Source: Albugo candida
Lineage: Eukaryota
Assembly (NCBI GenBank): GCA_040437565.1
Contig: JBDOQK010000028.1
Coordinates: 1 to 64,000 of the forward strand
Length of the DNA: 64,000 bases
Direction: 5' to 3'
The notes under the pieces were generated by a model, which was not told where the DNA came from, ran no database searches, and worked only from the letters and a program-made list of their open reading frames with translations. The position numbers and the translations under genes are program-made. This document shows positions 25,329 to 60,739 of the stretch, in pieces (positions within the stretch are counted from its first letter, which is position 1; each line of letters opens with the position of its first letter).

Positions 25329-26531
25329 TCATTGTTCCGACTCGTTCAAAATCGCGAGAATCGATCCACGATTCGAAGTTCTTTTCGAAATGAACGTATT
25401 TAGCTGGCCTGCTTGTACGCTTGATACTGGATGAGCATCCCAATGAGAATTGTCTTCTACTTGACCAAAGAAATTACGGAACTGATTCTTGTTTCTGGAC
25501 ATATCATTCCTCTGATGACTTAAATCAAACGATTGGGAATTTGACGATGATCGATGATTGAGATTATCAGAGAGATTACTGTTTGATTGCAGAGTATCTC
25601 TTGAATCCGATGATGGTACCATATATTTCGACTTGAACGCTTTCGATTTTCCTCTTGCTTGGTTTGAGGAAGATCTGACTCTTGCGTCTGCTTGAGCTTT
25701 CCGACTTTTCGAATTAGGATTTTCAATTACCAAGCTCAGTTCTTTTCGCAATTTTTGGGCTCGTGCATGGATTCGGTTCCGATTTATGTTTATAGGATTC
25801 CCAGCCAGAGCTTCCAAAGTTGTAATTTTGTTTATTATACTCCGAATTCGTCGATGGGGCCATCGAACTAAGCCATTTTTCCGACAGATTTTCTTCATCA
25901 AAGTGATACAAACTCCCAGTTCTTTGGCAACAACCGTCATCGGCTTGTTGAAATATGGTCGAAGCTCATTCAGTGTGAATTCTTTCACATTTAGGTCTGC
26001 GACTTTTATCATATGATTGGCATCTTCCATTTCATGACACGAAGCTCCCATTACCCTCGTTACTTGATGGTAACTTTTTCGTTCAGGATATATAATTTGG
26101 CTAGGAGGAGTGTGTGTGGGCACGGACATCCAACCTGACACAACTTTGGGTTCAAGATTTGTGCCTGCACACATATCCTCTTGCCCTTTGAGTATAATTC
26201 TCTGGGAATGCAGAGACGATAGTATTGCTTGACGCTCTCCGCTATCCATGTTGCGCGTATTACACCTTGCACTATTGTCCCACTGGTCATACTGGCACAT
26301 TCTCTTATGCTCCAAATGTATACATGAAAATACGCAATCTACTTCACTTGAATGGCTCGATAGTTGAGATATGGTGGACGGAGTGCTGTTACCTTCATAT
26401 AGACTTGGCTTGCTTTCCAGGTTGGGGTTTGTTCGCATGGGGAATGGTGATCGGCAACTGATTTTGATATTGTGACTACGCGTCATTCGTTTATGGTGCT
26501 CGTAAGGATTATTGCCATTGGATTGTATCAT
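25329..26531 (-). CDS. RWP-RK (NIN-like) transcription factor
   Basis: LNELRPYFNKPMTVVAKELGVCITLMKKICRKNGLVRWPHRRIRSI in a 400-aa ORF. Confidence 0.93.
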   Translation of the reverse strand: MIQSNGNNPYEHHKRMTRSHNIKISCRSPFPMRTNPNLESKPSLYEGNSTPSTISQLSSHSSEVDCVFSCIHLEHKRMCQYDQWDNSARCNTRNMDSGERQAILSSLHSQRIILKGQEDMCAGTNLEPKVVSGWMSVPTHTPPSQIIYPERKSYHQVTRVMGASCHEMEDANHMIKVADLNVKEFTLNELRPYFNKPMTVVAKELGVCITLMKKICRKNGLVRWPHRRIRSIINKITTLEALAGNPININRNRIHARAQKLRKELSLVIENPNSKSRKAQADARVRSSSNQARGKSKAFKSKYMVPSSDSRDTLQSNSNLSDNLNHRSSSNSQSFDLSHQRNDMSRNKNQFRNFFGQVEDNSHWDAHPVSSVQAGQLNTFISKRTSNRGSILAILNESEQ

Positions 26532-27486
26532 ACCGTTGGCCCTGTTGCATGTACAGCGCTTTTAGTCCAATCTAGTAAATGAATTTTTGGCTCGCAACTG
26601 TCCCTACACAAAACATTTTGGAAGTTGGTAAATTTCAAACAAGCTGGCGAATGAAGAGACTAAAATATCAAAGTGGTCTATCATGGAATGGAAACTGCCA
26701 TGAACCCACCGAAATAAAAGTGCACCGATCCAACATTACCTACTTTTGACAAACGAGCCGACAATAATTTTTGTATCGAATTGGAAGGTTCGCTTTTGCT
26801 CTGTAACCATTAATAAAGGGTCTTACTCTCNNNNNNNNNNNNNNNNNNNNNNNNNNNNNNNNNNNNNNNNNNNNNNNNNNNNNNNNNNNNNNNNNNNNNN
26901 NNNNNNNNNNNNNNNNNNNNNNNNNNNNNNCTGTAACCATTAATAAAGGGTCTTACTCTCTATAAGGGATAAGAGCTATTCGGTATACATATCTAGCCAA
27001 TCATAGGAAGTAGTCAAAACGCTAAAGCTTTTTTGAAAGCGGAACAGACGCTATGAACGGACAATAGTATGACGTTTTCAGGATGATCGCAGTGATTTTT
27101 CGTGGTTTGAAACGGAGCGGACGTACGCCACAAGAGCAATTATTGAGAAAGCATAGTAGATTTTATCATTATATCGCACAATGGTGATTTTAAATGTGTA
27201 TGTAAAACGGTAGCGAAATATGAGATGCAAATTTAGAGATGTTTGTGTGCCGCGCTGGATCGCCTTCTATATCACATCCTTTGCCACCTTCTTAAGATGA
27301 TCGACTGATCGTGTGTAATCGAAGGAAACATACTGAATCTGGACTGACTCGAATCGTGATGTACCGTGATGACTTTATTATAGCTTTTATCGGCTCGTTG
27401 AATGCTGATCTTATCAGTATTAATTCCCTATAGGAGACCCATTCCAAATTGTAAAGGCTGGAACATAGTCACATTCTCAAATCAAA

Positions 27487-29843: not shown

Positions 29844-31198
29844 ATGCGCGTGTGTCGTAAAGTGTTGCGTCTTTTATGCGCGTCATTCCTTTTTGTTGGT
29901 CTTCTCTACCTGTATACTGGCTTCCGTCTTCTTCTTATAGCTGAGTTCTATTCCATTGCAGCAGTGCTCATATCAATTGGAGGTTTGCTGCTTTTGAGTG
30001 CATTATTGGGCTGCCAAAATGCACCCACAGATCGAACAAAGCTCCTCATCATCTCGTTCACTATTGACTTTATCCTCTTTGCATGCATCTACCTAACCAG
30101 TTTCTTGCTCGCATCATACGGAAAAATGCTGCAAATTTGGATGCAGCATCATTGGGCGACGCTCGGGCGTTTGCGTCAGCATGAATGCTGTCAGGCCTTT
30201 CCAATGGCGGTGGCTCACGTCGATATACATCGTAAATTGATTTCATGGATAGGTTTCTGCTCATTGGGAATCATTTTATCAAAGATGTATTGCATTGTGC
30301 GAGTTGTATCATTGCCGATTGTTGTCAAATATGTGCTCACCAAAATGCATGCAATATTTGCCGGACTCGGAATAAGTAAGAATTTTGTAATCGGAGTATG
30401 GATATCACTCACTCACTTTGCAGTTGTGTTGATCTTTGGTTTTTCGGTTCGAGAGCGAATTTCTTCGACGCATCGACACAGCTGGATAGGTCTGCACATT
30501 GCTATTTTGTGACATCATTCTTATACGATGGACGTTGTCCTTGCTAGTGATTCTTTTCGTATTGGTCGGAATCCTATTGGCAATATCATCTGTTGTTGGT
30601 TTCATGGGATCACGTTCCAAAAGTAGAACACTCCTCCTCCTGGTACATAACGACATGGTCCCAATTGTGTCGAGCTAATCTTTCTCAATAAGTATGCGAT
30701 CGCCATGATCGCGTGTTTTGTAGCGTTGATGACAGGTACAGGAGGAGCGTTGACATTTATTGCGCATGCCCGACAATCGGATTACAAAGATTCCGGAACG
30801 ATAGCCTGTGATCTCGGTTTATTTCAGTGTACCAATTGTACGAGCACGAACGTTTGTTTGGGAGTTGCTACCACCGAAAATGGGACCAATGTGCCTTGTA
30901 CAAGCGCAGATATGTCTCGAGAAAGCTGTCAGCTACACAAAACCGTGCTTCTATATCCTGAAAATAGCGTAAGAGAGACTCGTATCATCCCTTCACAGAC
31001 TCATTTTTCTTGACGCAGATTGCATCGTGCTCCTTGTGTCCAGAATGGTCTGCGCAACAAGTACATGAGGTCATCAACTACGCTTTTATAACAGTGAGCG
31101 CGTATGGAACGTTAGGGAGTCTGTATATCGGTATAGGCTTCTTCGGTGCTTGCGTTTTGCGAAAAAGCTTGGCAGGATATCAGACTGATTCCGTATAG
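29844..31198 (+). CDS. Multi-pass membrane protein, tetraspanin-like (about two repeats), spliced
   Basis: Successive hydrophobic ORFs (29790-30512, about 30530-30645, 30705-31013, 31010-31198) with LLGC / VGFMG helices and Cys-rich loops, separated by GT-AG segments. Confidence 0.65.
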
Positions 31199-31283
31199 CG
31201 CTTGTAATGCTCGAACCAATCCGATACGTTCATTACGTGTCTTTTGTTCAATCACTGCTTCTTCGTTCCACTTTGTGTGCCAA

Positions 31284-33359
31284 ATGGCCAATTCGTTGCC
31301 TAGCGGCTGGTTTGAGAGCGGTCATAGCGCAATCGTCTTGTACGTTAAAGATTTCCGTGATCCATTTGCCCGTCGTAAAAAGTTTCGCTTTAAACCTTGG
31401 GCAAGCATAAAAGATATTAAAAATCAGCTACAAATTGTGTGGAATGTGCCCGCGAATGCACAGAAAATATTCCACAATGGAAGAGAGCTGAAAAACTCTC
31501 ACAATCTGCAGCAATGCGGCATCTATCAGGATCATGCAGTCTTGGAATTTGTTGCTCGTCGGCCGGAAAATATATCGCAAAATCTAATTACAAAAGCAGA
31601 TATCAGGGAGCATGGAAATTGTCGCAACGGTATGAAGGCTTGGAATCACGACTCGTCTCAGCAAGACCGGCGTGAACGACCGACGAGTACATCGAATGGA
31701 ATACCAATGGTGGAAGCTCCTCGTAACAAATTGATAAATAGTGCTGAAAGCTCATTGCTGAAAAGTTTCCAGATGCCATCTATCAATATTCAGCCATATG
31801 GAGCTCATCTTCTTCCTATTTCTCTTCTCAAAATCTTGCACAAGGTTGGAGACTAATCAATCCCTCGTTTGTTTGCTCACTTTGATCACTCGATCAGGTC
31901 CTACAAGCGCTCGCGCTCGGACTTGCACCAGAGCTTGCAATGGATGGTACAGGAGGAACGTATTTTTTCAAAGACGTATTTCATCGCAATACATGCTGCT
32001 TTAAACCGAAAGACGAAGAGCCTTTTGGACCCAATAACCCTCGTGGACTCGTAGGACAGCTTGGGCAAAGTGGTCTCCGAAAAGGGATCTTGTCCGGTGA
32101 AGCCTGTGAGCGAGAGCTTGCCGCCTATCTACTCGACAAGGTACTCTTTCATTGTCTCATCCATATGCCAAGACTTACTTTGGATGTAGAATCACTTTTC
32201 AGGCGTTCCTGCGACCTCTTTAGTAGAGGCTCGACACCCTGTTTTCAAATATAATGATACAGCACGTCTTCATTTCAAGATTGGATCGTTTCAAGAATTT
32301 GTAAAACACGACGATGTTGTTAGTGACGTATCCCCATCCCAATTCTCTCCGCACGAGGTTCATAAAATTGTGGTTCTTGACATGCGATTACTTAATACTG
32401 ATCGTAATGACGCCAACATTTTGGTCCGACGTAAACGAATGACTCAAAGCGAGGATCAATTGTCAGGTCAACGACCCGTTCAGAAATGTAGCTCCGCTTC
32501 ATCGAACCGAGTAACAGAATATGAGCTTGTTCCAATTGATCACGGCTATTGCTTACCTCAATATCTCGAAGTTGCGTGGTGCGATTGGTGCTGGTATCAA
32601 TGGCCCCAGCTGCGGGTACCTTTGAGTGAAGAAGATCGTACTTATATTCTATCGCTCGATCCCAGCAAAGATATGGAGATGATTTCTCAGAAAATTCCAC
32701 TTCGAGCAGTTTGTCGTCGTAATTTCTTAATTGCTTCGATGGTTGTTCAAAAAGGCGTTCGAGGTCGAGTATCGTTATATGAGATTGCTCGTCTGATGTG
32801 TCGAGAAGATTTGGAAACTCTTTCGGATTTGGAAAAGCTATGTCTGCATTCCTTTGAGCAATTGCTCGCGGCTCGAGATGCTAGACGAGATCGCCGTGCG
32901 GATATGCTTCGATTAGAAACATCTGTCCCAGGTCTCATGAGCATGCCTCCACGTCGGTCTTCACTAAGCAATGGACTTCAGTCTCCTCCTGGATTCTGGG
33001 CCAGCCAAAAACCAACGCACTTTTTCGGTGAACATTCAATGACCCAGGAGCTCGACAGACATTCCAGCAAGCATTCCAGCCAAGTGTTCGATCCGAGTGA
33101 TCCCAGTACTGGAACAAAGGACGATGAGAATGCATTAGGAGGCAAGACAATGCACACGACGTTCAATTCGACAGATTACGAGAGATATCATACGAAAATA
33201 TGCGATTCTTACGATGTGAGTGAAGAATTTGATGCAATGAATAACATTTTGGATGGAAACACTAATGATGAAAAGTTATTCTTATCAATTTTGAGCAAGT
33301 CACTGGACGAAGCTTATGATCTGATCAAGAGCAATAGCACGAATCTGAGCAGCTACTGA
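31284..33359 (+). CDS. Type II PI4-kinase gamma-like protein with N-terminal ubiquitin-like domain; introns 31845-31897 and 32141-32189
   Basis: [12 protein letters not shown]...[10 protein letters not shown]...LQQCGI. Kinase: [65 protein letters not shown]. Confidence 0.93.
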
Positions 33360-33560: not shown

Positions 33561-34718
33561 CTACCGGTGTTCTCGCTCAATTGCCTCATGACCTGATTCC
33601 GACATGAGCATAGGCTTCCCCGAGCTGGCACGAGAGATGATTATAATTCTGGGCCCATCCACTGAATGATTTGGCTCGGTTTCTTCCTCTTCGCCTGATC
33701 CTCGAGATGAATAGGTATCTTCCGTCGATTTGGCCTCTTCAAGTTCCTCTGAGTGTAACTGTTTATATCCACTTTTCATCGGGCTTGATGTTTCCTCGTT
33801 CGATCTCGCACGCAAGAGCAAGTCTTCAAGTTCTCCACGTGGTAATGTAACCATTTCCTGGCTTTTCGAAAGTGGAGGGGGTGGCATACCGAAGAAAGTA
33901 CCTTCTCTTGGTGGAAGTTCCTTTTCAGAGCTTTCTGGGGTATATCTTTCTTCTTCTTTCTTCATTTCTTCCTGTTTCATCCTCGCATAAGGAGAAGACA
34001 TTTGCGATCCATTCGCATTGGCTTGCGATCCAGACAACATGACTTGGTTGTTTGGGTTGAACCCTCTCGTATCGAGTGTTGTGTCAGCTTCTTGGTATTT
34101 ATCGACAGCATTCTCTTCCGCTTCCTCCACTCTTTCGCCCTTTTTCTCCTCTTTTTCCTCCTTCCCCTCTTTTTCCTCCTTCTCCTCTTTTTCCTCCTTC
34201 TCTTCTTTATCCTCATTTCCCTCCTTTTCCTCATTCTCTTCTTTTTCCTCCTTTTCATCACTCTCTTTCTCCTCTTGCTCTTCCGCTGCCTCTTTCGCGT
34301 GTGAAGTGGAGCCACCGTTGGACTTGACTACTTTGCTTTCATTTTCTGACGCCTCCAGCTGTGCAGTTTGCATTGCGGGAGTCTTCACGTCGCGTTGATG
34401 GTCAGTAGGAGGCAAAGTAGGAGCTGACTCAATAAGCTCAGTTCCAGTCTTGTGTTGACTTGATTCCTCATTCGGTTTGACATTCTTTTGGTCGGGTACC
34501 GGCGTACTTGGGTTTGGCGCTACGCCTCCAATATTCGGATTCGTTGGCTGAGTGTTCACATTTGCGTTCGCAGTTGTTACAGTCGGAGTGGAACCCGTAT
34601 TGTTTGGTGCGGAGGACGTCGGCGTTGATGTCGATGGAGTGTCGAAAGCCGAAGCAGAGGATGGAAACGTGACAGCGACCGCTGTGGAAATGATTTGAAT
34701 AATCTTTGCGATTTGCAT
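33561..34718 (-). CDS. Secreted low-complexity Glu/Lys-rich protein (385 aa)
   Basis: Signal peptide MQIAKIIQIISTAVAVTFPSSASA; T/P/N-rich segment; EEK tandem repeat at about 34130-34280; no Cys. Confidence 0.8.
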   Translation of the reverse strand: MQIAKIIQIISTAVAVTFPSSASAFDTPSTSTPTSSAPNNTGSTPTVTTANANVNTQPTNPNIGGVAPNPSTPVPDQKNVKPNEESSQHKTGTELIESAPTLPPTDHQRDVKTPAMQTAQLEASENESKVVKSNGGSTSHAKEAAEEQEEKESDEKEEKEENEEKEGNEDKEEKEEKEEKEEKEGKEEKEEKKGERVEEAEENAVDKYQEADTTLDTRGFNPNNQVMLSGSQANANGSQMSSPYARMKQEEMKKEEERYTPESSEKELPPREGTFFGMPPPPLSKSQEMVTLPRGELEDLLLRARSNEETSSPMKSGYKQLHSEELEEAKSTEDTYSSRGSGEEEETEPNHSVDGPRIIIISRASSGKPMLMSESGHEAIEREHR

Positions 34719-35461
34719 TGGATACTTGTAGTAGTCTCAAGTCTGAAAGAAAAGTGATAATGAGAGCTGTTGGTGCCTTCATGTCTTCTGAGTAACTTGA
34801 TTGCACAATGTCAAGTTGTGCGAGGTGATGAAACCTGGATAAGCCGATATAACGCNNNNNNNNNNNNNNNNNNNNNNNNNNNNNNNNNNNNNNNNNNNNN
34901 NNNNNNNNNNNNNNNNNNNNNNNNNNNNNNNNNNNNNNNNNNNNNNNNNNNNNNNGATATAACGCGTAAAACTAATGCCGGTAATTTTCTTACTCGGCTG
35001 ATTACTGAGTCAGTATTATTTATACACTGTACAACATGATACAATGAGTAGCTACTTCATCATATCGTGATGCGATCACGCAATTTCGATTCGACAAGAA
35101 TCAGGTGCACGAATGAACGACACACACGCAAACCACTAAGATTTGTTGATCGCATTCCTATCAATACGCTGTCTGGAATTCTTTCCTATCGGTTGTTGCT
35201 TTGCAAACGGATAATTGATTTGCAAAAACGTAGCAGTAGGGTAGATTTTGTGATCGTAAGAACTATCATCATCCATCTAAATCGCCCAGCCGTTTCAATG
35301 CTGACCGACATGCTATCGTGAAGTGTGTGATATGCAGGTCGAGAACGCGATAACACATCAACGACTAAGTAACAAACAAAAATGATGTAAAATGGGCAAT
35401 TTTTTTAAAATGACAAAGCGTAGAGAAATAAAGCATATGCTCTCTTAAAACTTAAGCGAAC

Positions 35462-36574
35462 TTAGTGGGTTCGAAGAATGACCACTTTTTGCTCGGCTGG
35501 TTCTCTTTGCATGACAGAAAGCGGGACGTGAGAGTGTTGGCTAGCGACGTGTGCGCTTTCATCAAAAATATCGAAAGGACTGATGTTTTCTTCGGTTTCC
35601 TCAGACTCGGAGGTTTCCGGTTCATCTTCGTCGGTAGACTTCTTGATGATATAGACACGCTTTGAATCATCACGGCGTTGATGATGCTCGGTATCAACCA
35701 TAGCGATTGAACCATCACTCAGACCACCATCAGTAGATATTTCTTTCTTTTCAATCTCTTTGCTCACTTCTGGCATCTCATGTGCGATAATTACGAGAGC
35801 TTTCTGATCTTTTTGATCGCCATTGTGACCGTGTGCCTCCGATTGTGTTGGTGCCGATGTTGGGTGCTCAGGGACAATAGGACCAGATCTTTGTTTCATG
35901 TCTGGTTTTTGAACAGGAGGCGGAGGCTGTTGTTGTGGAGATTCTTTGGGTTCGTCATGTTTCTCTTCCTCCTCTTTGTCTTCTTTCTCCTCTTTGTCTT
36001 CCTTTCCCTCTTTATCCTCCTGCTCTTTGCTTGCATGTTCTTCCTCCTTATTTTCATGTTCTTCCTCTTCCTCTTTAACATTTTCACCACTTTTGTTGTT
36101 TTCTTTCTTTTCGTCCGATTCTTCATCCTTGCTCTCTTCTGGTTTAGTATCATTAGGCTTTTCATCCTCGTTAGCCTTTACGTTCTCAGGCTTCTCTTGA
36201 TTGTTATCTTTTTCGTCACCCTTTGGAGCTTCAGAAGATGTCGGACTGCCTTCTTGTTTTGTTTGGTGAGCAGGAATTGGAGAACTTGATTGAGAAGTTT
36301 GCTTCATCGCAGGTGAATAAGCTTCCGGTTGCATTCCAACCGCTCCATGTTGAGGAAGCGGACTCGCGTTAGGTGGATATCCATTCGAGCGTGTTGGAAC
36401 TGGAGGTGCACTTGGTTTGAATGTATTTGCTTGGGAAGCGGTCTGAGATGCGCCTTGAGATGCGCCTTGAGGCGTAGGCTGAGGAGGAGAAGTGGAGGGA
36501 GTCTCAGCGTTGGAAACGTGGGCTGCGACAGCTAGCGCGATGGAAATGAGGCCGAATGTCTTGTTTAACTGCAT
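35462..36574 (-). CDS. Secreted low-complexity Glu/Lys-rich protein (370 aa), paralog of 33561-34718
   Basis: Signal peptide MQLNKTFGLISIALAVAAHVSNA followed by ETPSTS; P/Q/S-rich segment; EDK/EEK repeat; no Cys. Confidence 0.8.
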   Translation of the reverse strand: MQLNKTFGLISIALAVAAHVSNAETPSTSPPQPTPQGASQGASQTASQANTFKPSAPPVPTRSNGYPPNASPLPQHGAVGMQPEAYSPAMKQTSQSSSPIPAHQTKQEGSPTSSEAPKGDEKDNNQEKPENVKANEDEKPNDTKPEESKDEESDEKKENNKSGENVKEEEEEHENKEEEHASKEQEDKEGKEDKEEKEDKEEEEKHDEPKESPQQQPPPPVQKPDMKQRSGPIVPEHPTSAPTQSEAHGHNGDQKDQKALVIIAHEMPEVSKEIEKKEISTDGGLSDGSIAMVDTEHHQRRDDSKRVYIIKKSTDEDEPETSESEETEENISPFDIFDESAHVASQHSHVPLSVMQREPAEQKVVILRTH

Positions 36575-36584
36575 TGTGATTGGA

Positions 36585-36600
36585 ATATTTGAAAGTGAGA
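36585..36600 (-). promoter_or_regulatory. Possible oomycete Inr/FPR core promoter element
   Basis: CTCACTTTCAAATATT just upstream of the ATG resembles the YCAYTYYNCAWTTY consensus. Confidence 0.4.
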
Positions 36601-36961
36601 GTGATTGATGCTCTGGTCTGCCATTTAGACTGTTGTTGGATCAGACTATGATACCACTTGGAAACATACTCTATCAAGTAATAATACTGGATAATGGATG
36701 CTTGAATTTTATCTCCGATACGTATATCTTGTTGATAATATTCTATAAATGGATATATTCAATAAACCAATCAGTAAGAAAAACGTTGATCCAACTGAAT
36801 TCAAAATCAAGTAAAAAATCGAATGAGACTGGGTTCAAGTAGCTTCGATTTGCATGTCCTTGATCGTCTGATCGTTTTAAGCAACTTTGTAAAGTTGCTT
36901 TGCAACGTTTTTGTCAAAAATTGACTCCGCTTTTTATCGAAATAGCAGCTGCGAGCAACGT

Positions 36962-39672
36962 TTATGCACTGGTTCTCGATTGAGCGGTTGAAGGGTAGAA
37001 TGTAAAGTTTTCAAACGTTCCACTTTGTCGGGAAGAAAGGAGATGACCTGTTCGGATTGTATCAATCACAGGCTCGGATGTGAATTCTGGATCAAAGTTA
37101 CCCACATCCAACTCATTGAGTATGATCGGTTTCCACGGCGGCTGTACCTCTTGCAGAAAAAGCAGACCCCAGCTGATATTAGTGAAAAAAGAATGTGTTT
37201 TGATATCGTCTGCGCCGTGCGCGCCAAGTCGATTCGTTGGCTCAAATGTGAGCAATCGATCGATCAGATCCCGTGCATCTTCAGTCATATTGGCTGGAAA
37301 TAGATCCTGGATGATCCCTGGTGTCATGATTCTTTTCACCATAAGATCGTGATTCGCGTCAAGAAAAGGATGAAATCCCGTCAGCATTTCAAACATCAAT
37401 ACACCAAGCGACCACCAATCGACCACATGGCCATATTTTTGCATAGAGTAAACTTCTGGTGCGAGATATTCTGGGCTTCCTACGATGGTCGAGGCGCCTT
37501 GATTGGAAAACACATTCAGTTTAGATAATCCAAAATCTGTGACACATATGTGCCCAGAATTTTTCAATAAGATATTCTCAGGCTTTAGATCTCGATACGC
37601 CACATTGAGATGATGTAAATGCTCCAATGCTAACACGAGCTCAGCGCAATAAAAGCGAGTCAATTCGTATGAGAATCCGCTTTTCGACATGTGGTGGAAT
37701 ACTTCTCCGCCGCTGCAATAATCAGTGACAAGATACAATTTATCTTTGGTTTGAAAGGAGAAACGAAGACGTGAAATGAATGGATGTTGGATTTCCTTGA
37801 GAATATATCGTTCTGTTTTCACGTATTCCTTCATATTGAGTTTGACCAATTCTTTTCGAAGCACTTTGATAGCGTACAATTTCTGCGTATCGATTTTACG
37901 GGCGAGGAATACCTTTCCGATGGATCCCCGGCCAATGACCTTGATGAGGTCGAAATCGCTGATGGAGATGGAATTTAGTGTGCGTCGTAATGTTTCGTCC
38001 TTGGAGCTCTGATTGTTGGCAGAATTGGCCAATGTCAAGTTGCAACACTCGATTTGGAACGAGGAGGATACCGAAGATGTACTTGTGTCAATCATTGTGT
38101 TTCGTAATTCTGTGATGGAGGCCAAACGATTTTCATGCTCGCAATTCAATTCGGTAGTAAACATCCGATTCCGTCGACTTTGTCGGATCAAATCGATCGC
38201 ATCCACTCGGCATTGCATCAAATGACCAAGCCAAGACGTCGTCCCACGATCACATTCCCATACAAATTCTCGAGCAGAGATCTCACGATCCCGAGCTGCA
38301 ACAAAGTATGTGAAAATGACATCCAAAGCGATGCTGATGGTCATGGCTTGCTTCGAGGAAGCATGTGGTATTGATGTGAATCTTTTTCGCCTACTTTTGC
38401 TCACAATACTGCTTACATCGCCAACAGATATAGAGACGCAATTGGAGCAGTTTGGATTATCCACATGCGCTCCAGCCGCGATGGCCGTATCAGATGTGAA
38501 GTTCATGGCCATTTTGCAGGCGAATGAGTGACTCGTAGAGAGCATTGCCAACGATGTGGCTGGAGCTTCCGCAAAAACAATGGCTTTCAGCATTTTGCAA
38601 AGCCTCTGCTTTCTTTCTTTTGTCAAAAAAATGACCAAATCGATAGCATCGGCTTGCGCGAGGATGAAATATTGCTTTGCTCCAAAATGATGAAACACTT
38701 TATCGCATACAAAACGAGTATATTCTTCTGGCGATACGATCGATCGATCCTCTTTATCGCTGCCGCGTTTGTATGGATCCAAAATTACAACTGAAAAGTG
38801 CTGTTCGCGGGCTCTTCTCAGTGTGGGCAGCATGGATCCCAATTCTAATCCTTCAAAAAACAAAGTATCCGTGCTCCAAATACCAGGTCGAGCGTCTTCA
38901 CTTCCATTAATCACAATGAGAAGATTGGCCTGTGTTTTCCAATCGGAAGTGATAAAGAGATCACAAAGAACTTGCTTTATTTTGCTCTGCCCATTTTTGT
39001 TGGAGTTAGCTTTGACTTGCATTTGGATGTGTGCTCGCTTAAAGTCAAGTTCTGCCATCAGTTCCATTTCAATGTGGGAAATAGCTGCATGCATGGCTTC
39101 CGTCGCTCTTTTTCCTTCTTGCTCGTTGCTTACAAACTCGAAAATCGCTTGGTTGGAAGCACAGCATCGCAGAATTCCGTAGGGATCGAAATAATACGAT
39201 AATTCCTTCAAACACGCCATCCGATCGGTCAGCTGAATGGACTGTGTGTTCTCGTCCTCAGTTCCACGTTTCTGCGATTCTAATGAGAGTTTCTTACCGT
39301 ACCGTTTCCATATCATTTCGAAAATGGAGCGGTCCAAACAAACGATATAATGCTGTCCATCTCTGAACTGCACGCTTTCTGTAACAAGATCGTACGAGGA
39401 TGCTTGTAGAATCCGACACTGTTCCAGTAATCCATCTGGACGGTCTTCCATCTCGACATCGTCCTCGAAACAGCTCTATAAAAACACTTTCATCAGTTGG
39501 AGCGCAAGGTTGGAAAATAGATTTGATTAAAGTATACCATGACAAGCTCGTTCACAGTCACAAGCCAAGAATCCATTGCCGTCACAAATGCAATTCTCGC
39601 ATTGGAATAAACGACTTCATTGCGATTCAGCTGAGCTAACTGAACGCAGACGCGTACACTCGGCGCTTGCAT
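36962..39672 (-). CDS. AGC-family Ser/Thr kinase with N-terminal Arb2/FAM172-like domain; probable intron 39476-39537
   Basis: GRGSIGKV, YAIK, YRDLKPEN, DFG, GSPEYLAPE, DWWSLG, and AGC tail NFDPEFT...FENFTF. An upstream exon (MQAPSV...) splices in frame. Confidence 0.92.
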
Positions 39673-39762
39673 CGTGTTTTCACCCGAGAATTCCGTCCAC
39701 AATGCGACGATAAAATGTTGTCAGAACGTACGTAATTTTGCTTAAAAAACAGCGCATAAGCG

Positions 39763-40655
39763 ATGCGTTCATTGAGCTTTTACGGTCGATTTTCTCCGCA
39801 AATTTGCAGTAAATTGACACGCACAGGCTCGCAGTATGCCTCTATGTCGATCGGAAAGCCACAAGAGCGGCTTTTGTACGCGAATCACATGCCCACAACT
39901 CCTTTGCAGAAAATCATTCTTTCGGGAGTCTCTGCTGTGAGCGTATTTGCGAATCCGAATCGAGCCGATATGCTCGCGAATCTCGGCGAATTGACGGGAA
40001 CCAGTGCTTTACGGTCCATTCACGCGCAAATGTGCTCTAATTCGACCGGAGTTCAGATTCTTTATGATCGCCCGCGAATCCGAAGTGATGCGATTAATAA
40101 GAGCGCATTGCGGTCGCTACCGAGCGATACGTTTGGGTACGCCTACGCTCGTTTTATGGACTCCAACGGGTGCGTACCGCTTCCAATTTATATGATTGAT
40201 TATTCGTTCGCTGTTAGTTTTGAGGCCGATGGGCGCTCGTACGTTCAGTTTGTGGATGACACGGATTTGGCTTATGTGATGCAGCGATATCGGGAGCTAC
40301 ATGATCTCTGGCACACTCTATTTGGGCTGCCTGCGACTCTGTTTGGTGAAATTGTGCTGAAATACATTGAGCTCGTGCAGACGGGTTTGCCAGCTTGTGC
40401 ATTGAGTGGTTTTGTCGGTCAATTTTTGTTGTCGCGAGGTACGGAATTCGTGCAGCTTTTCTCATTTGGCTGAGATGCACATTCACTGTAGATGATATGC
40501 GAGAGCTGGCGTGTGTGTATGTTCCGTGGGCGTACAGAGCCGGCAAAGAAGCATCGTTTTTGATGAACATATATTATGAGAAGGAATTTTCGACGCCTTT
40601 GGAGGAGTTCCGTGATCGATACAACATTCAAGTGGCTCCACCAAAGGAAAAATGA
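39763..40655 (+). CDS. COQ4: Ubiquinone biosynthesis protein COQ4, 2 introns
   Basis: NPNRADMLANLGELTG, LP.DTFGYAY, YVMQRYRELHDLWHTLFG...GEIVLK.IE..QTGLP, YYEKEF; N-terminal mitochondrial-type presequence. Confidence 0.95.
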
Positions 40656-40759: not shown

Positions 40760-41206
40760 CTATTTATCATTCTTTGGCGATTCTTCTGCCGGGTCTGAAA
40801 CTTGTTCCGTGGGCATTTCTTGCTTGGGGTCTGTGAGGAATTTCTGAAAAGCTTCACTTTCACGCAAACATTCCTGCTTCCCGATAGCGTCCACAATCTT
40901 TGCAAATTGTATCTCGCGTTCCTGCAGAATCTCTGGATTTTGCTTATCCAAAAACAAGGCAAACGTCTTGGTACTTGGGAATTTGGGCAGACTCGATACG
41001 TCCTCAAGATTTGCATACAGCGTTTTGAAGTCTGTGTACCTGCGTTTCAGCAGCGTGTCATCCACTTGCACATTATAATAGACGACTTGGTCGGGCCCAA
41101 TGCTGTGTCCGGTGACGCTGTAGGTACTCTCGCGCTTCTCCTTGGCGTCGACACGCTGATCGTCGGACTGCAGCGTTTGCGCGGGATTCGATTGAGTGCA
41201 TCCCAT
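40760..41206 (-). CDS. Small PX-domain protein with MGC acylation motif
   Basis: MGCTQS start; VVYYNV, KRRYTDFKTLY, LPKFPSTK, ERE, FQKFL. Confidence 0.85.
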   Translation of the reverse strand: MGCTQSNPAQTLQSDDQRVDAKEKRESTYSVTGHSIGPDQVVYYNVQVDDTLLKRRYTDFKTLYANLEDVSSLPKFPSTKTFALFLDKQNPEILQEREIQFAKIVDAIGKQECLRESEAFQKFLTDPKQEMPTEQVSDPAEESPKNDK

Positions 41207-41503
41207 TTTTTGATCGGTCCGAAAGAAATGTAATGCGTACAATCAGTCGATTGCGTGGCTGTGAAAGGCACAGAAAACAGAATTTTTAATCACGATAGAA
41301 ATTTTCCCGCTTTTGGCTCTTTTTCGGTCGGAGGATTGCCAGAGAGATTGAAAGCCACATATCAGCCGATACTGAACCTTTTATGCATCAGAGCTAGAAT
41401 GTCATTTTTGGCCGAATTCCAAAAATACTCGAATAAGACCAGGTCATGAGGACACTCGAGAGCATTGAGCATGCTCAATCGGACAGCCAGTTGAGAATCT
41501 ATC

Positions 41504-42335
41504 ATGTCCAAGAAAGAAGTGATGAATCGCACCGTAAAAGCAGTAGAGCTTGGGCGAATATCGCTACAGCCTGTGGGAATAATTCAGCGTAAAAGCTTGG
41601 GGCCGAAAAGTTGTGGCGCCTACAAAATTCGCAAAATTGAACAGACAAAATTTCGTTATTTTTGTAAGTTGCAGGCTCCCGAACGAAACAATCGAGCTGA
41701 CACGAGTGTATGTAGATGATCGTGGGGATCTTCCGTTGCGCGTGAATTTCAACGGTGCGATTCGGAAGATTCAATGGCAAGTAGAGCTCGCGAAACTCGA
41801 CTTTGGCCATTACCTTCCGCTTTTTATGGAAGGCCTACGCGAGCTGGACGATCCGTACCATTTTCTGGCGCTGAACGGCATTCTGGACATGCTCGATAAA
41901 GGCCAAGATCGGGCGCTATTATGCATTCCTCAGCTGATTCCAGCCATGAAGCAGAATCTTATGACTCGACATCCACAGATTTTATGTATGCAAATGAAAG
42001 TGATACAAAAGCTCGTTGGTGGTAGTAACTATGCTGGAGAAGCTTTAGTTCCGTATTACCGACAGCTTTTATCAGTGTTCAATCTCTTTGTCAATAAACG
42101 TGTCAATTGCGGAGATGCTATCGATTACGGGCAACGAAGAGAAGATAATCTCGGAGATCTCATTCTCGAGACTCTAAATATTTTGGAGCGGCATGGAGGT
42201 CCTGACGCGTTTGTGAATATAAAGTGCGTCGATACAATTGTTCGTATGTGAGGGTGTGTCTGACTTGTTTCGATTTCTGATGATAGATATATGGTCCCAA
42301 CGTATGAAAGCTGCGTGAAAAAAGCTCTTAGATGA
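41504..42335 (+). CDS. PACRG: Parkin co-regulated gene protein (axonemal), 3 exons
   Basis: TKFR..|DRGDLP, LDFGHYLPLFMEGLRE, GEALVPYYRQLL, IDYGQ, GGPDAFVNIK|YMVPTYESC. Confidence 0.95.
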
Positions 42336-42364
42336 TACGAGAATTCGATTTTTTTCAATACTCA

Positions 42365-43345
42365 TTAGACAACTGGAAGCTTTTTTAATGCGGATTTTGC
42401 TTCTTTCAAGCCTTGGTTTGCCGCTAGTTGATAATAATGAGTCGCTTTCGCCAGATCTTTGGGTAATTCAGCTTGTCCCTTTTCGAAAAACTGACCGAGA
42501 CAGAGCTGAGCCTGCGGATTTCCACCTTCCGCCGCAAGAAAAAACCATTCCGCAGCTTTACTGAGATTCTTTTCAACACCGTACCCGAGTGAGTAACACG
42601 CTCCAAGATCGAATTGAGCAAGAATGAGACCGGCATCAGCTGCTTTTTTAAAGTGCCGAAAGGCTCTACAACGATCGTGATCGGTTCCTTGCCCGCGGGT
42701 ATACGCGGTTCCGAGCGCGTGATGTGCTTCCAGCATTCCCTGTTTGGCTGCTTTTTCAAACAAATCGAACGATTTCGCGAAATTCTGTGTCACGTGAACT
42801 CCTTCGGCATACAAACGACCGAGATCATATCGGGCCACCATGTGGCCTCTGTCAGCTGCTTTGGTCCAGTATTCCACCGCCAGCGAGCAATTTTGCTTGA
42901 TTCCTTTGGAACCGTGAAGAAAGATTGTTCCAATTTTATGGCAGCTTTCTTCGTGCCCGGCGTCGGCCGCAGTCTGAAGGAATGTTTTCCCCAATTGCTC
43001 GTTTTTCTCTACGTTTTCGTGGCCTTTCAAGTACAAATTTCCGAGCGCAAATTGAGCTTTTGTGTGACCTCTTTCCGCAGCGTTTGTCCAGTGAATGATT
43101 GCTCGGGTAATAAAACTCCTTGTAGCGATTTTCGCGTCGGAAGAGGGTGCATCGGATGGGTGCGTTCGGGAAGCTTTTACGAAGTATTTAACACCGGTTG
43201 CGAAATCGCTGTCAGCAGATTCAGAAAATTGTCTTAAGAAAAATGATGTGGACGGACTCGTTTGCTGTGCGGATGTTATTTGACGTGGAATTAGCGACCG
43301 CAAGTGCTTGGTCGATAGCAGTTTAACGCTCATGGAGATCGCCAT
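42365..43345 (-). CDS. Sel1/TPR repeat protein, probably mitochondrial
   Basis: Repeated AA..G...AQF.LG..Y..G.GV units; basic, hydroxylated N-terminus. Confidence 0.9.
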   Translation of the reverse strand: MAISMSVKLLSTKHLRSLIPRQITSAQQTSPSTSFFLRQFSESADSDFATGVKYFVKASRTHPSDAPSSDAKIATRSFITRAIIHWTNAAERGHTKAQFALGNLYLKGHENVEKNEQLGKTFLQTAADAGHEESCHKIGTIFLHGSKGIKQNCSLAVEYWTKAADRGHMVARYDLGRLYAEGVHVTQNFAKSFDLFEKAAKQGMLEAHHALGTAYTRGQGTDHDRCRAFRHFKKAADAGLILAQFDLGACYSLGYGVEKNLSKAAEWFFLAAEGGNPQAQLCLGQFFEKGQAELPKDLAKATHYYQLAANQGLKEAKSALKKLPVV

Positions 43346-43467
43346 CGGTTACATAACAAACATGTGATGTTACCTATCAATGCCAGTTGATGTTGCAAGA
43401 ATGTGGTGGTGCAATTTTTAAATAACTGTAACTATGGTGGTGCGTCGAGATTATCTGCCGGTAAGAC

Positions 43468-46357: not shown

Positions 46358-47317
46358 TCAAACAAGACTAGGCTTTTCCATACATCTGTCATGAACCAGG
46401 ATCGGATGGTGCATTTCCACAAAAAGGTGGTACACTCCAGCCCCGATGGCGCCACCGACTATTGGGCCTACAGTTGGCACCCAAAAGTAGTAATCTTGCA
46501 TTGTGAATGTCTTGAATCCCCATCCACCAATTGCGGATAGGAATCTTGAAGCTAAGTCTCCCGCTGGATTGATAGCACCCCCGGTATTCATTCCAAAAGA
46601 CGCTCCAATAGCGATAACAAGCAGCGCAGTGGCGCCTGGAGCGGTGTATGGACCTGCGGGTTTGTTACGTTGGTCTCCGATTGCAAAGATTCCACCCATG
46701 AGAAGCGCTGTTCCGAAGGCCTCAGATAAAAATGCGCTTGCATTCGAGATTGCGGCGTTCGGGTAGGTCGCAAACAGTCCATGTGTAGTCTCTCGTTCGG
46801 GGTCGATGACATTAAAAATAGGATAATAGATTGCAAGAACCATCGCTGCGCCACAAAACGCACCTAACAGCTGTGCTAGAATGTAAAAAGGAGCTTTTCG
46901 CCATGGAAAACGTCGAAATAAAGCCAATGTCGTAGTTACTGCTGGATTAATATGTGCGCCACTGACACCGCCAGCGCAATGAATCCCAAAAAGAACGCCC
47001 AGACCCCAACCCATATTGATACTCAAGTACACACCGCTATTTTGTTGTGATAAAACTACTTGCGCAACGACACCGTTACCAAAGCAAAGAAGAATAAATG
47101 TGCCCAGAAACTCTGCCAAACATTCTCGTAACAGCTGATTCTTTATTGCGCAGCCACTTGGCATTTCCATCATCGTAGCTTTCGGCTCGTGATCGAGATC
47201 TGAGTACCCGCTGTCTTTAACTCCACCCATTGTTACTAGTTCCACGGAAGCGGATTGCCGCATGTCATTACCATCAGCATCGGCATACATAATCACAGAG
47301 AAATCTTGATACCCCAT
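46358..47317 (-). CDS. Aquaglyceroporin (MIP family) with atypical NPAG loop E
   Basis: AEFLGT, SGAHINPAVT, FATYP, GGAINPAGD in an intact 319-aa ORF. Confidence 0.95.
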   Translation of the reverse strand: MGYQDFSVIMYADADGNDMRQSASVELVTMGGVKDSGYSDLDHEPKATMMEMPSGCAIKNQLLRECLAEFLGTFILLCFGNGVVAQVVLSQQNSGVYLSINMGWGLGVLFGIHCAGGVSGAHINPAVTTTLALFRRFPWRKAPFYILAQLLGAFCGAAMVLAIYYPIFNVIDPERETTHGLFATYPNAAISNASAFLSEAFGTALLMGGIFAIGDQRNKPAGPYTAPGATALLVIAIGASFGMNTGGAINPAGDLASRFLSAIGGWGFKTFTMQDYYFWVPTVGPIVGGAIGAGVYHLFVEMHHPILVHDRCMEKPSLV

Positions 47318-47530
47318 TTGATCGGCAGTAGCGAGTCAAAGAATTATTGATCTAGAGACTCAAAAGTGCGAGTAACGAATCAAGAATATAAGAGACTGAG
47401 AATCAATTGAGGTTGTCGTGAAAGTATCTGNNNNNNNNNNNNNNNNNNNNNNNNNNNNNNNNNNNNNNNNNNNNNNNNNNNNNNNNNNNNNNNNNNNNNN
47501 NNNNNNNNNNNNNNNNNNNNNNNNNNNNNN

Positions 47531-47845
47531 ACCCCAACCCATATTGATACTCAAGTACACACCGCTATTTTGTTGTGATAAAACTACTTGCGCAACAACA
47601 CCGTTACCAAAGCAAAGAAGAATAAATGTGCCCAGAAACTCTGCCAAACATTCTCGTAACAGCTGATTCTTGATTGCCCAGCCACTTGGCATTTCCGTCA
47701 TCGTAGCTTTCGGTTCGTGATCGAGATCTGAGTACCCGCTGTCTTTAACTCCACCCATAGTTACTAGTTCCACGGAAGCGGGTTGCCGCATGTCATCACC
47801 ATCAGCATCGGCATACATTATCACAGAGAAATCTTGATACCCCAT
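47531..47845 (-). CDS. Aquaglyceroporin 5' fragment, cut by a gap (third copy or alternate haplotype)
   Basis: Nearly identical to 47010-47317 but with several substitutions (N/D, S/P, M/T, C/W). Confidence 0.6.
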
Positions 47846-50014
47846 TTGAATGGAAGCACAGAGTCAAAAGGTTATTGATCTAGAAACTCAAAAGTGCGGG
47901 AACGACTCAAGAATTCAGGAGACTGAGAATCAATTGAGGTTGTCGTGAAAGTATCTGATCGGCGCGACCCAGAGATGAAATTGGTATATGAGTAGCAATG
48001 TGAGATTTCTAGCTGTAAGAACCATGAAGTCGTGAAATTTGTATTACACCTTTCTGCCAGATGGTATGCATGCGAATAGAATCAACCATACGTCACTGTA
48101 CACTAGCTAAATCATCTTGGCTTTCAAATTTCATAGTGTGACCATACTAGACACATCCGTACCGTCATCTGTCTCTTTCCGTTTACATCAGAGAGACAGA
48201 TTCCGACTGGTGACCCATTACTTAAAGGGCACACACCAGCTGTGTTGAGCGAAAATTGGAAATTACGTTTTTATGTTGATAGGTCCGTAGTTCACAAAAA
48301 GCGAATCTAAGCCAACGCCGCAGCATTCACCATCTTGATATTCTATACCGCTTGTGACAATGATACTTACACTGACTTCACGCGTAAGCAATCTTCTAAA
48401 CTTCTGTTGTGGGAAAGGAGTGTGTTAGTCATGACTTTTTGACCATCTTCTTCCTCACTCCCCCTCAAAGCACTACTCCTGATGTTCGCCTGGTGAACCG
48501 AATCTTGGAATTGTTCGTCGAAATAGGCTTTCTCAAGAAATCTGCAAGTTGATGTTTTGATTCAATGTACTCAATCTGTATTTCTGCAACCTTCAGAGGA
48601 TCACGAAAAAAATGGTATCGAACATCAATATGTTTAGCCCGACCTTGATATCCGATATTTTTCGCATTAGCAATAGCACTTTGATTATCCTCAAAAATAG
48701 TTTGTTATTGATTAATGTTTTGCCTTCAACTCAGATAACAAATTCTTGAGCCATATAACTTCTTGCACACAGAGTGGCAGTGCGATGTACTCTGCCAGCC
48801 GTACTGAGTGCTACACTTTGTTGAATTATATGATTTGAAGATCAGTGGGGCTCCGCTTATCATAATCATGATTCCAGAAACAGATCTTCTGTCTCCCTTG
48901 CTATTTACCCAATCCGCGTCACTATACGCACATACCTTCAAAACCTTCCCGCCGCCTCTGTATGAAATCCCGTTGTCACTTGTTAACTTCATGTATCGCA
49001 GAGCTCTTATCGCTGCTTTACAGTGCTCTTCACTATGTAGTTCCAAATGTCGACTAAGTTGACCGACTGAGAGGGCAATATACGCTTTTGTTCCATATAT
49101 GTAGAGTAATGATCCCACTACAGATCAATTAGGACGAAATTTTATCCTCGAGTCTTCTTGTTCAAACCTTGATAAAACTTGGCCTTAAAACATTGGAGGT
49201 GCAAACTTGCTTTGCGTCGATTTATTTGAACTATTCGATCATCTATGTATGCCGAATACTTGACATATCTTCACCACACGTTTCGTCTGACCTTAATCTA
49301 CTTGTATTCCCGACATATAAATGACCTTTTCGATTCCGTTCACTTAAAATGTTGGCTTACTTTGCCGGAAGTCCCCTTTTTTTCTTCCAAAGTCGTTGCA
49401 CCCATTACCACGTCATCAACACATAATGCGATGTATACCAGCGACTTTCCTTTTTGTCGACAAACATGCATGAGTCTGTCCTACACTGTTTAAATTCCAT
49501 TTCCAAGAATACTTTCGATATTGTCTTAAACCAAGTTAAAGCTGCCTGCTCCAAAATCATACAAACTTCTATTCAGATGACAAACTTCATTACGCTGAGC
49601 CTGGACACCTCTAGGTGGTATACGTATATCTTTTCCTCCAGGTACCAATGCCCATTCAAAGACTAGGTGTCGATATCAATTTGCTTAATTTTGGAAACCT
49701 TCGTGACAGCATGCCGATAAGTAAATACTGATAGAATTCATGTTTGCAGCTGGTGCATATGAATCCATATTATCAACCTCGATATCCCAAAGCAACAAGT
49801 CTAGCTTTATAATTTTCAATTTCACCGAATTCATTTCGCTTCAAGGTGAATACCCATTTTGTTCCAATAACCATCATATTCGGTTTCATGTAAGTCAAAG
49901 TCTATGTGTTCTTTGTTATTTTGTTAGAGGGAAAAAGGGCAAGCATATTATCAAAATCATTAGTCACCTACGGGCCACTAATCACAACATCACAGCTAGA
50001 TTTGTCGACAGCTA

Positions 50015-50753: not shown

Positions 50754-52412
50754 TGTTGGAAGGACTTAAGAATGTGCTTTAGGTTTCTAGTCGCACTTGG
50801 CACTTAGTCTAAACGATAAGTTAGGATTTTAATTTTCTAAAGAATAAAACCTCAGTTTTGGCAATTTTCCTGGAACGCGACCATCTTCGCTCACCTGCCA
50901 ACAGCTTACGAGTCCAACCCAGATTTCATCAGCCAAGACCATGGAAGAATCCGACAGATCAAATGAGTCGGACATGGACCGAATGATGATGCTACTGGAG
51001 GCACTCGGAAATCGACTGGACAAAATCGAGACCGAGCGGAGCCTCGGCTCGCCCCTATCAGCACCGACCGCGCGAACGGAGAGCGTATTTGCTGGTCCCA
51101 GCAACCAAGGACGGATTTGACAATGTCATTCTTGGATGCGAAACCGATGTAGCATCGTGGAAGCGGGATGAGGAGAAGCTTTATCCATGCCATGCAACAT
51201 AATTCTCTGGACGGGCTAAATCGAGTGAGATTCCCCGCAGCAAGCGATACGAAGCTCGCCATTCAGCCAATCGAAGGGAAAGAAATCTACTCTGCACTTG
51301 GAGCGCCGCTACGCAATGGTTTTATCGTTTCTTGCGGCAACTATCGCATGTCCAACAAGCATCCGGCGGGATTTGGAGTGAGGAGGTGAAGCTGGACTGC
51401 CTAAGACGGCATCTCAGCGGAGAAGTTCTCACTTATTTCGAGCATCAAGTACCTCAGTGGATAACTCGGTGTTCTAGCGTTGAAGAAGTGATGGACCGGA
51501 TCAACGAAGTGTTTCGGCCCAGCATCACCAGAACGCAAGCAACACGCCTTTATACCGCAAAAAAACGACTGGACGCGCTTGGAGTGAGCATTTTCTATTC
51601 CTGTCGGCAGTCAGTGAAGCAGTCGGTGGAGCAGATGATATGCCCCTGGAAAGTGTCATCAAGTACGCAAAGCCTATTTTTAAACAAGCCTGGTGGCCCG
51701 TATCAGTACATGAGATAAGACACCAGACGGCAAGCCGAGGAACTCTATCACTTTGCCCAGCTTATGGATTCAGACACAGTGATGCATCAAGAGAGCCGAA
51801 GAAATGGAATCGAGACCGAATCGGTACAATAAGGGAATCCAAGCCGAAGAAGCAAATGAGCTGTTATGATTGCGGAAAAATTGGACATATGAAAAAGGAT
51901 TGCCGGAAAAAGAGTTCCTCCAGCAGGGAAGACATGGTCTTAGAGATTGGATGCAAAAGTACTACGCTGAAACAACGAAGAAAGTATGGATATTAGACAG
52001 CGGATCCAGCAGGCATCTCGTAACGGATGTGAACATGTTACAACATCGCAAGGAATGCACCGTATCATGCATACTTCCAAATGGGAAGGAAATGAAGATG
52101 GGATGGACAGGATCGGCGACGATTGTCCCAACAGTCAACGGTTTACCGAGGAATGTTCTCTTGAACGACGTGCAACATTCGGAACACCTCCCTTGATACA
52201 GTGTTTCGTATGGAAAGTTGGAGGCAAAAGGATGCGAATTGACGCACCAAGCAGATGGATCGAGAGTTAAAGAGTCAAAAATGTGCTTTAGGTTCCTAGT
52301 CGCACTTGGTGCTTAGTCTACATGATTCGTTAGGACTTCGATTTTCTAAAAAATAAAAACTCACTTTTGGCAATTTTCCTGGAACGCGACCATCTTCGCT
52401 CACCTACCAACA
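50754..52412 (+). mobile_element. Copia element C, internally deleted (LTR-gag-protease-LTR), inserted in the RNase H of element B
   Basis: LTRs 50754-50903 and about 52279-52412; perfect TSD CTCAA at 50749-50753 and 52413-52417; CYDCGKIGHMKKDC; WILDSGSSRH. Confidence 0.92.
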
Positions 52413-59971: not shown

Positions 59972-60739
59972 TTGAATGAAAATACAGAGTCAAAGAGTTT
60001 AGATCTAGAGACTCGAAAGTGTGGGAACCGAGTCAAAATTCAAAAGACTGAGACTTGATTGAGGTTGTCGTGAAAGTATCTGATCGGCGCGACCCAGAAA
60101 GGGAATTGATAAATGAGCAATAATGTGAGAGATTTGGTTGTATAAAACATGAAAGTCGTGCAAAATAGGTATCCACGTTTTTGCCGGATGGTATGCTGAA
60201 AGAACCAAAAAGTCAACAGGTTGCTGACAGACGAAAAGACGGTAAAGTGTGCCATGGCGTAGAGAAGCAACCTTAGGTCACTGGTACACTAGCTGAATCA
60301 TCTTCGCTCTACTTTATCCTTAATTCAATGACTAATCGAATTACACAATGTGCATCTTGCCGAACACCACCGAAACGTCACCTGTCTCTTTCCCTTTACA
60401 TCAGAAAGACACATTCTGACTGCCGACCCATTACCCAAAGGGCACACACACCAACTTATGTGTACTTTCCCAAGAAGAAGTCCTATTTCGATCCGATACC
60501 CTAAACCTGAAACCGAAATGTTGACACCCAATGATGTCCCTTACGAAACATCTTGTTCAAGTTACAAACAAAAGCTGTAATGCTTTACATTCTCGGGCAT
60601 CAGCTAATTCAGTGTTTAAGGCTGTGAATCCTTTACATAGCTTTCGGAATTCGTGGGGTTTTCACGCGTTAGTGCCCAAACAGTCATAGAGATCAAACGT
60701 GTGAAATGGAGTGTATTGCCTGCCAAATTTAATGTAATT

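Follow-up and report, generated by a model that had tools for sequence, protein, structure and literature searches.

The gene analysed here lies on the minus strand of a 64,000-nucleotide stretch of Albugo candida DNA (contig JBDOQK010000028.1 of assembly GCA_040437565.1; this whole stretch is referred to as the window), and it raises the question of what an Arb2/FAM172-like domain is doing ahead of an AGC-type kinase within one protein. A preliminary description, made from the DNA letters, had the domain tether the kinase to small-RNA or chromatin machinery, in an architecture that it did not recall having been characterised. We see that the architecture and the role of this gene are already known; what is new is the reading of the published Gα-binding half as a predicted ubiquitin-like domain and, after it, an Arb2 pseudo-hydrolase, together with a larger family of such kinases.

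Gene structure and domain content

An open reading frame of 837 aa (stop-to-stop) occupies positions 36962-39475 of the minus strand, and encodes Arb2 and kinase domains with no stop between them. These had been placed in one continuous frame over 36962..39672; the two domains do share a single exon, but a 62-nt intron separates this from a short exon 1, of which position 39672 is the true start codon. The features of the gene are as follows.

39538..39672, minus strand: exon 1, 45 codons starting with the ATG at 39672, first half of the ubiquitin-like domain, 135 nt free of stops
39476..39537, minus strand: intron, 62 nt, GT..AG, phase 0
36962..39475, minus strand: exon 2, 837 codons plus stop, with the remaining ubiquitin-like part, Arb2, linker, kinase and AGC tail
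39326..39672, minus strand: predicted ubiquitin-like (β-grasp) domain, covering approximately residues 3-95 after splicing and interrupted by the intron
38288..39223, minus strand: Arb2/FAM172-type α/β-hydrolase-fold domain, exon-2 residues 85-396, predicted to be catalytically dead
38828..38890, minus strand: 'arm' segment, I199, L210 and L212 corresponding to the Hda1 dimer-core residues I512, I523 and L525
38642..38665, minus strand: nucleophile elbow (AQADA), Ala275 replacing Ser
38567-38569, minus strand: acid residue Glu303, Glu in 28/28 orthologues
38348-38350, minus strand: His site, Gln376, the column being taken from stand-alone rows (63/71 with His)
38156..38191, minus strand: linker basic patch with RxRxxT, candidate nuclear-import signal and AGC phosphosite
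37184..37954, minus strand: AGC Ser/Thr kinase domain, catalytic residues complete, activation-loop Thr663
36965..37183, minus strand: AGC C-terminal tail (Pkinase_C) with NFD motif, turn-motif site Thr806 and hydrophobic-motif site Thr825

The spliced protein has 882 aa, and the protein starting at a Met within exon 2 has 829 aa. The closest named relative is Albugo laibachii CCA22066 (P0003; 82%), with which exon 1 shares 38 of its 45 residues. The intron is spliced out in contigs of the sequencing runs X1, X2 and X6 and retained in X8; the RNA status of these four runs is guessed, with none recorded as RNA, and X1 and X6, which have identical depths, are probably one data set. No joints within 36962-39475 occur in contigs of the four runs, although such contigs cannot establish a single transcript. 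Two adjacent genes or a mis-assembly were ruled out by the single exon, the lack of joints and the fusion seen across 28 orthologues, a count that is complete because the 28 aligned rows were selected as full-length kinase forms.

Head-to-head with the kinase gene lies COQ4 (39760-40655, plus strand), with start codons approximately 90 bp apart and possibly a shared promoter; its introns (40168-40217 and 40436-40490) are spliced out in the same contigs as the kinase intron, and it is adjoined by PX-domain, PACRG and Sel1-repeat genes (40760-43348). Two tandem low-complexity ORFs of 391-392 aa (33561-34736 and 35462-36640, both minus strand), with signal-peptide-like starts and Glu/Lys-rich middles, are candidate secreted proteins; BLASTP between them gave no significant similarity and Pfam no family above its cut-off. 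Elsewhere in the window are a ubiquitin-domain ORF with a PI3/PI4-kinase ORF after it, the two being probable exons of a single type II PI4-kinase-like gene (31137-33359, plus strand), three aquaporin (MIP) ORFs, one of them partial (46358-47863 and 59033-59989, minus strand), an RWP-RK transcription factor (25329-26561, minus strand), and the remains of Copia-type retrotransposons with gag, zinc knuckle and reverse transcriptase pieces (363-758, minus strand, and 51484-55300).

That an intact AGC kinase stands beside the Arb2 domain, as first described, was borne out by Pfam matches in the 829-aa protein to Pkinase (E 4.8e-66) and Pkinase_C (E 2e-9) and by a full set of catalytic residues. 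K537, E555, D629, D647 and T663 are invariant in 28/28 orthologues, the turn-motif and hydrophobic-motif sites are Ser or Thr in all of them, and the top kinase matches in a structure search were Akt1, RSK2 and RSK1. In the linker, an RxRxx[S/T] site is found in 28/28 orthologues, at the same column in the 26 non-Albugo rows; it is weak evidence alone, as a shuffled linker has a chance of 0.16-0.41 of holding such a site, and the surrounding basic patch may serve as a nuclear-import signal and AGC phosphosite. The full-length model of the window protein is poor (pLDDT 56, pTM 0.41) and uninformative on domain contacts, and fold searches using it returned kinases only.

The preliminary description overlooked a further domain at the N-terminus. 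Both models of the first ~100 residues give a strand-strand-helix-strand-strand order. For A. laibachii residues 1-105, Atlas structure neighbours had TM values of 0.53-0.62, all below the bar for naming, and 6/10 of them carry ubiquitin-like family or cluster names (YukD, PRKD1-N, UBAC1, KHA); feature scores for this segment were 0.85-0.88, which serve as leads only. Pfam gave no match on this domain, and a profile of it found one orthologue fragment only among 145 distant matches. The models thus support a ubiquitin-like fold for residues 1-105, without a nameable family. A parallel is the ubiquitin-like domain of protein kinase D (PF25525), also a β-grasp at a kinase N-terminus (TM 0.62 over 79 residues, below the naming bar), which has a role in dimerisation; protein kinase D differs in not being an AGC kinase, and there is no sequence match to it.

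The Arb2 domain and its active site

In the 829-aa protein the Pfam Arb2 family, PF22749, reaches 65.2 bits (E 7.6e-18), above its cut-off of 26.8. This match covers only residues 80-228 and profile positions 4-140 of 260, whereas that of P0035 covers positions 3-253; the family was matched in 28/28 orthologues. Fold searches used the N-terminal 549 residues of the Phytophthora orthologue P0030 (pLDDT 81.5) in place of the window protein. The best matches were Clr3 (Z 19.5, rmsd 4.1, 220 aligned) and Hda1 (Z 18.0, rmsd 3.5, 213 aligned), with esterases below both (Z at most 14.6). Foldseek with the same model against solved Arb2 domains gave E 4.5e-8, a profile search matched Clr3 at E 1.3e-11, and phmmer of the window N-terminus against the PDB returned nothing significant. 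Pfam on the window protein and fold searches on the orthologue model thus yielded an Arb2, α/β-hydrolase-fold match and not a blank, in line with the original assignment.

The Arb2 domains of Hda1 (5J8J) and Clr3 (5IKK) resemble this one further in being non-catalytic domains on an enzyme and in their conserved arm hydrophobics; they differ in being attached to a deacetylase and binding histones (available text of PMC5036196), and the identity is 13%. The arm residues were equated with those of Hda1 by a hand count on a profile alignment, against the same excerpts, and the three columns (I199, L210 and L212) are hydrophobic in 28/28 orthologues. A homodimer prediction for the Arb2 domain scored 0.00 with the alignment unused, which tells neither way.

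Active-site residues were compared in a 100-row Arb2 alignment, for which 14 orthologues were chosen and two double-domain proteins and short fragments omitted. Ser, acid and His are together retained in 62/71 rows outside the kinase-linked group, compared to 3/29 inside it, these three all being of PITG_01365 type with uncertain His alignment. The acid is Glu in 29/29 kinase-linked rows and Asp in 70/71 of the others. Stand-alone FAM172A-like proteins (P0065-P0208) share the PF22749 family and fold with our protein and have no kinase attached; they mostly keep a near-invariant Ser-Asp-His, suggesting that this family may be real hydrolases, and a literature search on FAM172A catalysis found nothing. 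Among the 28 orthologues, the His site holds Lys in 26 and Gln in the two Albugo rows, with His in none. Because of this, while 62/71 other Arb2 rows keep Ser-acid-His, the Arb2 domain of the window protein is, judged on its residues, a pseudo-hydrolase that is catalytically dead. A non-catalytic fold had already been proposed from the AQADAI elbow. This conclusion stands for the window protein, but the elbow argument holds only in Albugo, since 26/28 orthologues keep the elbow Ser and only the two Albugo rows lose it; what differs throughout the clade is the His site.

These same counts raise the question of whether the non-Albugo domain could still be enzymatically active, or trap a ligand covalently, with Ser-Lys-Glu in place of Ser-His-Asp and with this activity lost in Albugo. 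Ser and Lys each occur in 26/26 non-Albugo rows, with Glu in 28/28, and the two Albugo rows differ at both the Ser and the Lys position. However, a joint loss is expected anyway because the entire Albugo Arb2 domain evolves fast (37-40% identity to non-Albugo orthologues, against 72-73% among the latter); the elbow is Thr in Lagenidium and Gly or Asp in most other kinase-linked Arb2 domains, and the His-site column comes after a low-complexity insert. We know of no α/β-hydrolase with Lys as general base, and consider an active Ser-Lys-Glu site unlikely.

Orthology to PsYPK1 and the family of Arb2-linked kinases

In its available text, PMC7010300 names XP_002900048.1 as the Phytophthora infestans orthologue of PsYPK1 (P. 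sojae Ps350990, XP_009525581.1). XP_002900048.1 is PITG_13415, and it falls in a cluster (P0057) found with the window family and aligns colinearly with the window protein over its full length (46.7% identity, 858 columns). Because of these three observations we identify the window gene, by sequence comparison, as the Albugo orthologue of PsYPK1/PITG_13415. The first 400 PsYPK1 residues, as given in S1 Table of PMC7010300, have the matching N-terminus, arm and elbow, and the window kinase domain is 67-68% identical to orthologues compared to 46-54% to other Arb2 kinases. The proteins have a common layout and similar lengths (870-882 aa), with the kinase 70% identical to that of the P. infestans protein; the Albugo Arb2 domain additionally lacks the Ser of the elbow, its loop is shorter, and its identity is ~38%.

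With the Globisporangium orthologue as query, 36 matches were obtained, comprising 21 with a whole kinase, eight joined to a RhoGAP, five with the kinase tail only and two with Arb2 alone. The Arb2-RhoGAP (8/36) and kinase-less (7/36) forms were set aside as probable gene-model errors, as models from strains of the same species differ at the junction and others have the full kinase; database labels for shortened models read 'Arb2 domain-containing' or 'FAM172A-like'. A CRIB-like/RhoGAP gene seemingly lies just downstream of the kinase in Phytophthora, Peronospora and Lagenidium (P0015, P0021-P0025, P0041, P0042, P0062, P0063), and gene models often join the two into one; a scan of 41 window ORFs gave no RhoGAP. 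The members that carry a name are from Albugo, Globisporangium, Pythium, Phytophthora, Peronospora, Peronosclerospora, Bremia and Hyaloperonospora, with no Saprolegniales names among the 36 matches. A further homologue search for longer proteins (1030-2940 aa) found nothing, so any range beyond Albuginales, Pythiales and Peronosporales rests on unnamed metagenome proteins.

Contrary to the view that the architecture had not been characterised, Arb2-AGC kinases have been in print since 2010 (PMC3019232), and knockout, pull-down and localisation data exist for PsYPK1 (PMC7010300). The available parts of the 2010 paper report Arb2 as a domain new to kinases, carried by PITG_06776 and PITG_01365; the domain column of its Table S1 is empty for PITG_13415, whose mRNA levels are reported as 1.27 in hyphae, 1.75 in sporangia and 0.016 in zoospores. 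Titles and abstract openings, with subscription journals outside the coverage, showed no link between PsYPK1 and Arb2, and a search within the same coverage for Arb2, oomycete and kinase returned only PMC3019232. Like the window gene, PITG_06776 (Arb2, C2, FYVE) and PITG_01365 (Arb2, FYVE) have Arb2 N-terminal to an AKT-type AGC kinase; they are paralogues, which carry FYVE or C2 domains and lack the ubiquitin-like domain.

By eye, at least seven of the 47 P. infestans AGC kinases have an Arb2-like N-terminus (PITG_01365, 06776, 07055, 13415, 14413, 15089 and 16446), compared to the two labelled in the available text of PMC3019232; this count comes from motif searches in ~400 letters of each Table S1 sequence, with no profile. 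The five other than PITG_01365 and PITG_06776 have an empty domain column in that table, and the same by-eye count places Arb2 in 6/20 AKT-group kinases and one RSK in Phytophthora. A word-free search found at least eight further unnamed proteins with Arb2 ahead of an AGC kinase or its first residues, among the best 150 of 198 matches. In Cantina marsupialis (P0163, P0209) we see Arb2-FYVE-ankyrin proteins with no kinase, with His where the orthologues have Lys and the elbow Ser lost.

In a quick tree of the whole 100-row alignment, the 29-row kinase-linked group had an SH-aLRT of 80. In a more careful tree of 46 rows (18/29 and 28/71; five long or insert-bearing rows were dropped deliberately), the 18 rows fall on a 97/83 branch, joined by three rows without a visible kinase, and the 18 are exclusive in 20% of bootstrap trees. 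Within the 18, P0148 and P0163 show no kinase, and P0166 and P0210 are PITG_01365-type models without one. The tree allows a single origin of kinase-linked Arb2 without establishing it, and the window domain, which is fused to a kinase, sits on this branch of mostly kinase-linked domains, unlike the stand-alone Ser-Asp-His proteins.

One other family member may already have functional data. Residues 2-321 of the cytoplasmic protein PsZFPK1 (P. sojae 345221) are needed for its function, according to the available text of PMC10381902, and 'Arb2' has no occurrences in the main text of that paper. By eye these residues look like an Arb2 domain. An unusual FYVE motif and the spacing of the activation loop are common to PITG_16446 and PsZFPK1 (599 vs 602, by hand count on the available sequence), and the former is probably the orthologue of the latter. 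PsZFPK1 resembles our protein in its AGC kinase, essential N-terminal region (2-321) and activation-loop Thr; it differs in having its own FYVE domain and no hydrophobic-motif phosphosite.

The Gα-binding half and its likely role

Oomycetes have a single Gα, and the available text of PMC7010300, the source of this paragraph, describes PsYPK1 as the first direct downstream kinase, bound via a region 'of unknown function' with 'no known domains'. PsYPK1 appeared in a Gα co-IP on two peptides within a 65-protein list, and pull-downs confirmed that Gα directly binds its N-terminal half, with binding abolished by deletion of residues 2-303. Full PsYPK1 and its N-terminal half are both cytoplasmic; the truncated form lacking 2-303 is nuclear, as is PsYPK1 in Gα-silenced cells. 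Gα leaves its phosphorylation unaffected, and PsYPK1 also has Gα-independent roles. It acts in the nucleus, and its loss alters 963 transcripts. The knockout has 97% fewer sporangia, 0 oospores, lower virulence and rapamycin sensitivity, and the kinase domain is required for both sporangia and oospores.

We consider it probable that the window protein is likewise an active AGC kinase with an N-terminal half serving as a non-catalytic control module, and that Albugo keeps the Gα circuit as in P. sojae. As published for P. sojae, Gα would hold the kinase in the cytoplasm via the N-terminal half, and its release would let the kinase act in the nucleus on sporulation genes. The basic linker patch would drive nuclear import once Gα lets the kinase go. 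AGC kinases are activated by PDK1- and TOR-type kinases at activation-loop and hydrophobic-motif sites, here presumably Thr663 and Thr825. The Arb2 domain would be a scaffold or ligand pocket common to the paralogue family. As the Albugo Arb2 domain has diverged so far more than the kinase (37-40% vs 69-70%), Gα binding could have been lost.

Which domain docks Gα is a matter of modest preference. The published deletion removes the ubiquitin-like domain and cuts Arb2 just ahead of the elbow strand, residue 303 preceding the elbow Ser319 in 870-aa orthologues. We lean towards the ubiquitin-like domain, at slightly better than an even chance, because among the paralogues it is confined to this one and β-grasp domains are common GTPase effectors; Arb2 is a lesser candidate of some weight, and a site made by both would be surprising. 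A broader alternative, which we hold to be plausible though the less probable course, is that the Arb2 pseudo-hydrolase and not the ubiquitin-like domain is the Gα- or ligand-sensing unit, and a general module of stramenopile AGC kinases. The deletion wrecks Arb2 too, and between Phytophthora and Pythium/Globisporangium the Arb2 domain is 72-73% identical, above the 58-60% of the compared part of the ubiquitin-like domain; the required region of PsZFPK1 also appears, by eye on the available sequence, to be Arb2. Yet Arb2 is common to at least seven paralogues while the co-IP, in the text available, reports just this AGC kinase. Two of the five PsZFPK ids, sought in the co-IP table of 65 proteins, were absent, which is weak evidence. 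Furthermore, Ps350499, the other confirmed Gα-binding kinase in the available text of PMC7010300, has no Arb2; it is a 463-aa kinase that begins directly with the kinase domain, and this ruled out a mistyped identifier for an Arb2-FYVE kinase.

The P. sojae data likewise bear on the proposed tether to Argonaute or chromatin, which we now regard as very improbable. In its favour, the nearest solved folds are the Clr3 and Hda1 Arb2 domains, the arm positions on which Hda1 depends to dimerise and to bind histones (available text of PMC5036196) keep their residue type here, and PsYPK1 acts in the nucleus with wide effects on transcripts. However, the N-terminal half by itself stays in the cytoplasm and the nuclear signal rises when this half is removed, so that the data from PMC7010300, as available, point to Gα binding and cytoplasmic retention. 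The paralogues combine Arb2 with FYVE and C2 membrane domains, and the domain branches with kinase-linked Arb2, apart from stand-alone FAM172A-like rows. The loop that we take, from its position in FAM172A, to be the equivalent of the AGO2-binding NLS loop is only 15 residues long in the window protein and 14-20 in orthologues, in an alignment holding no vertebrate sequence. FAM172A itself is nuclear, and binds AGO2 via E229 in an NLS loop that splits the ARB2 domain (available text of PMC10205598).

Recognition of two folded domains in the Gα-binding half means that the binding site can be tested with two constructs. The data further suggest that a second published essential N-terminus, that of PsZFPK1, also consists of this Arb2 pseudo-hydrolase, and that the Arb2-kinase family is approximately three times larger than annotated. 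A regulatory domain restricted to stramenopiles, on kinases needed to form spores, might serve as a selective target in crop protection. On a bolder and rather doubtful reading, drawn by analogy with plant hydrolase-fold hormone receptors, stramenopiles may have made a FAM172-type hydrolase into a dedicated AGC-kinase sensor, about as frequent as PH/PX in Phytophthora; its old active-site pocket would bind a lipid, a small signal or the single oomycete Gα and so gate nuclear entry, with YPK1 adding a ubiquitin-like GTPase-effector domain. If true, such kinases would form a class not yet described, gated by a G protein or a ligand and controlling sporulation.
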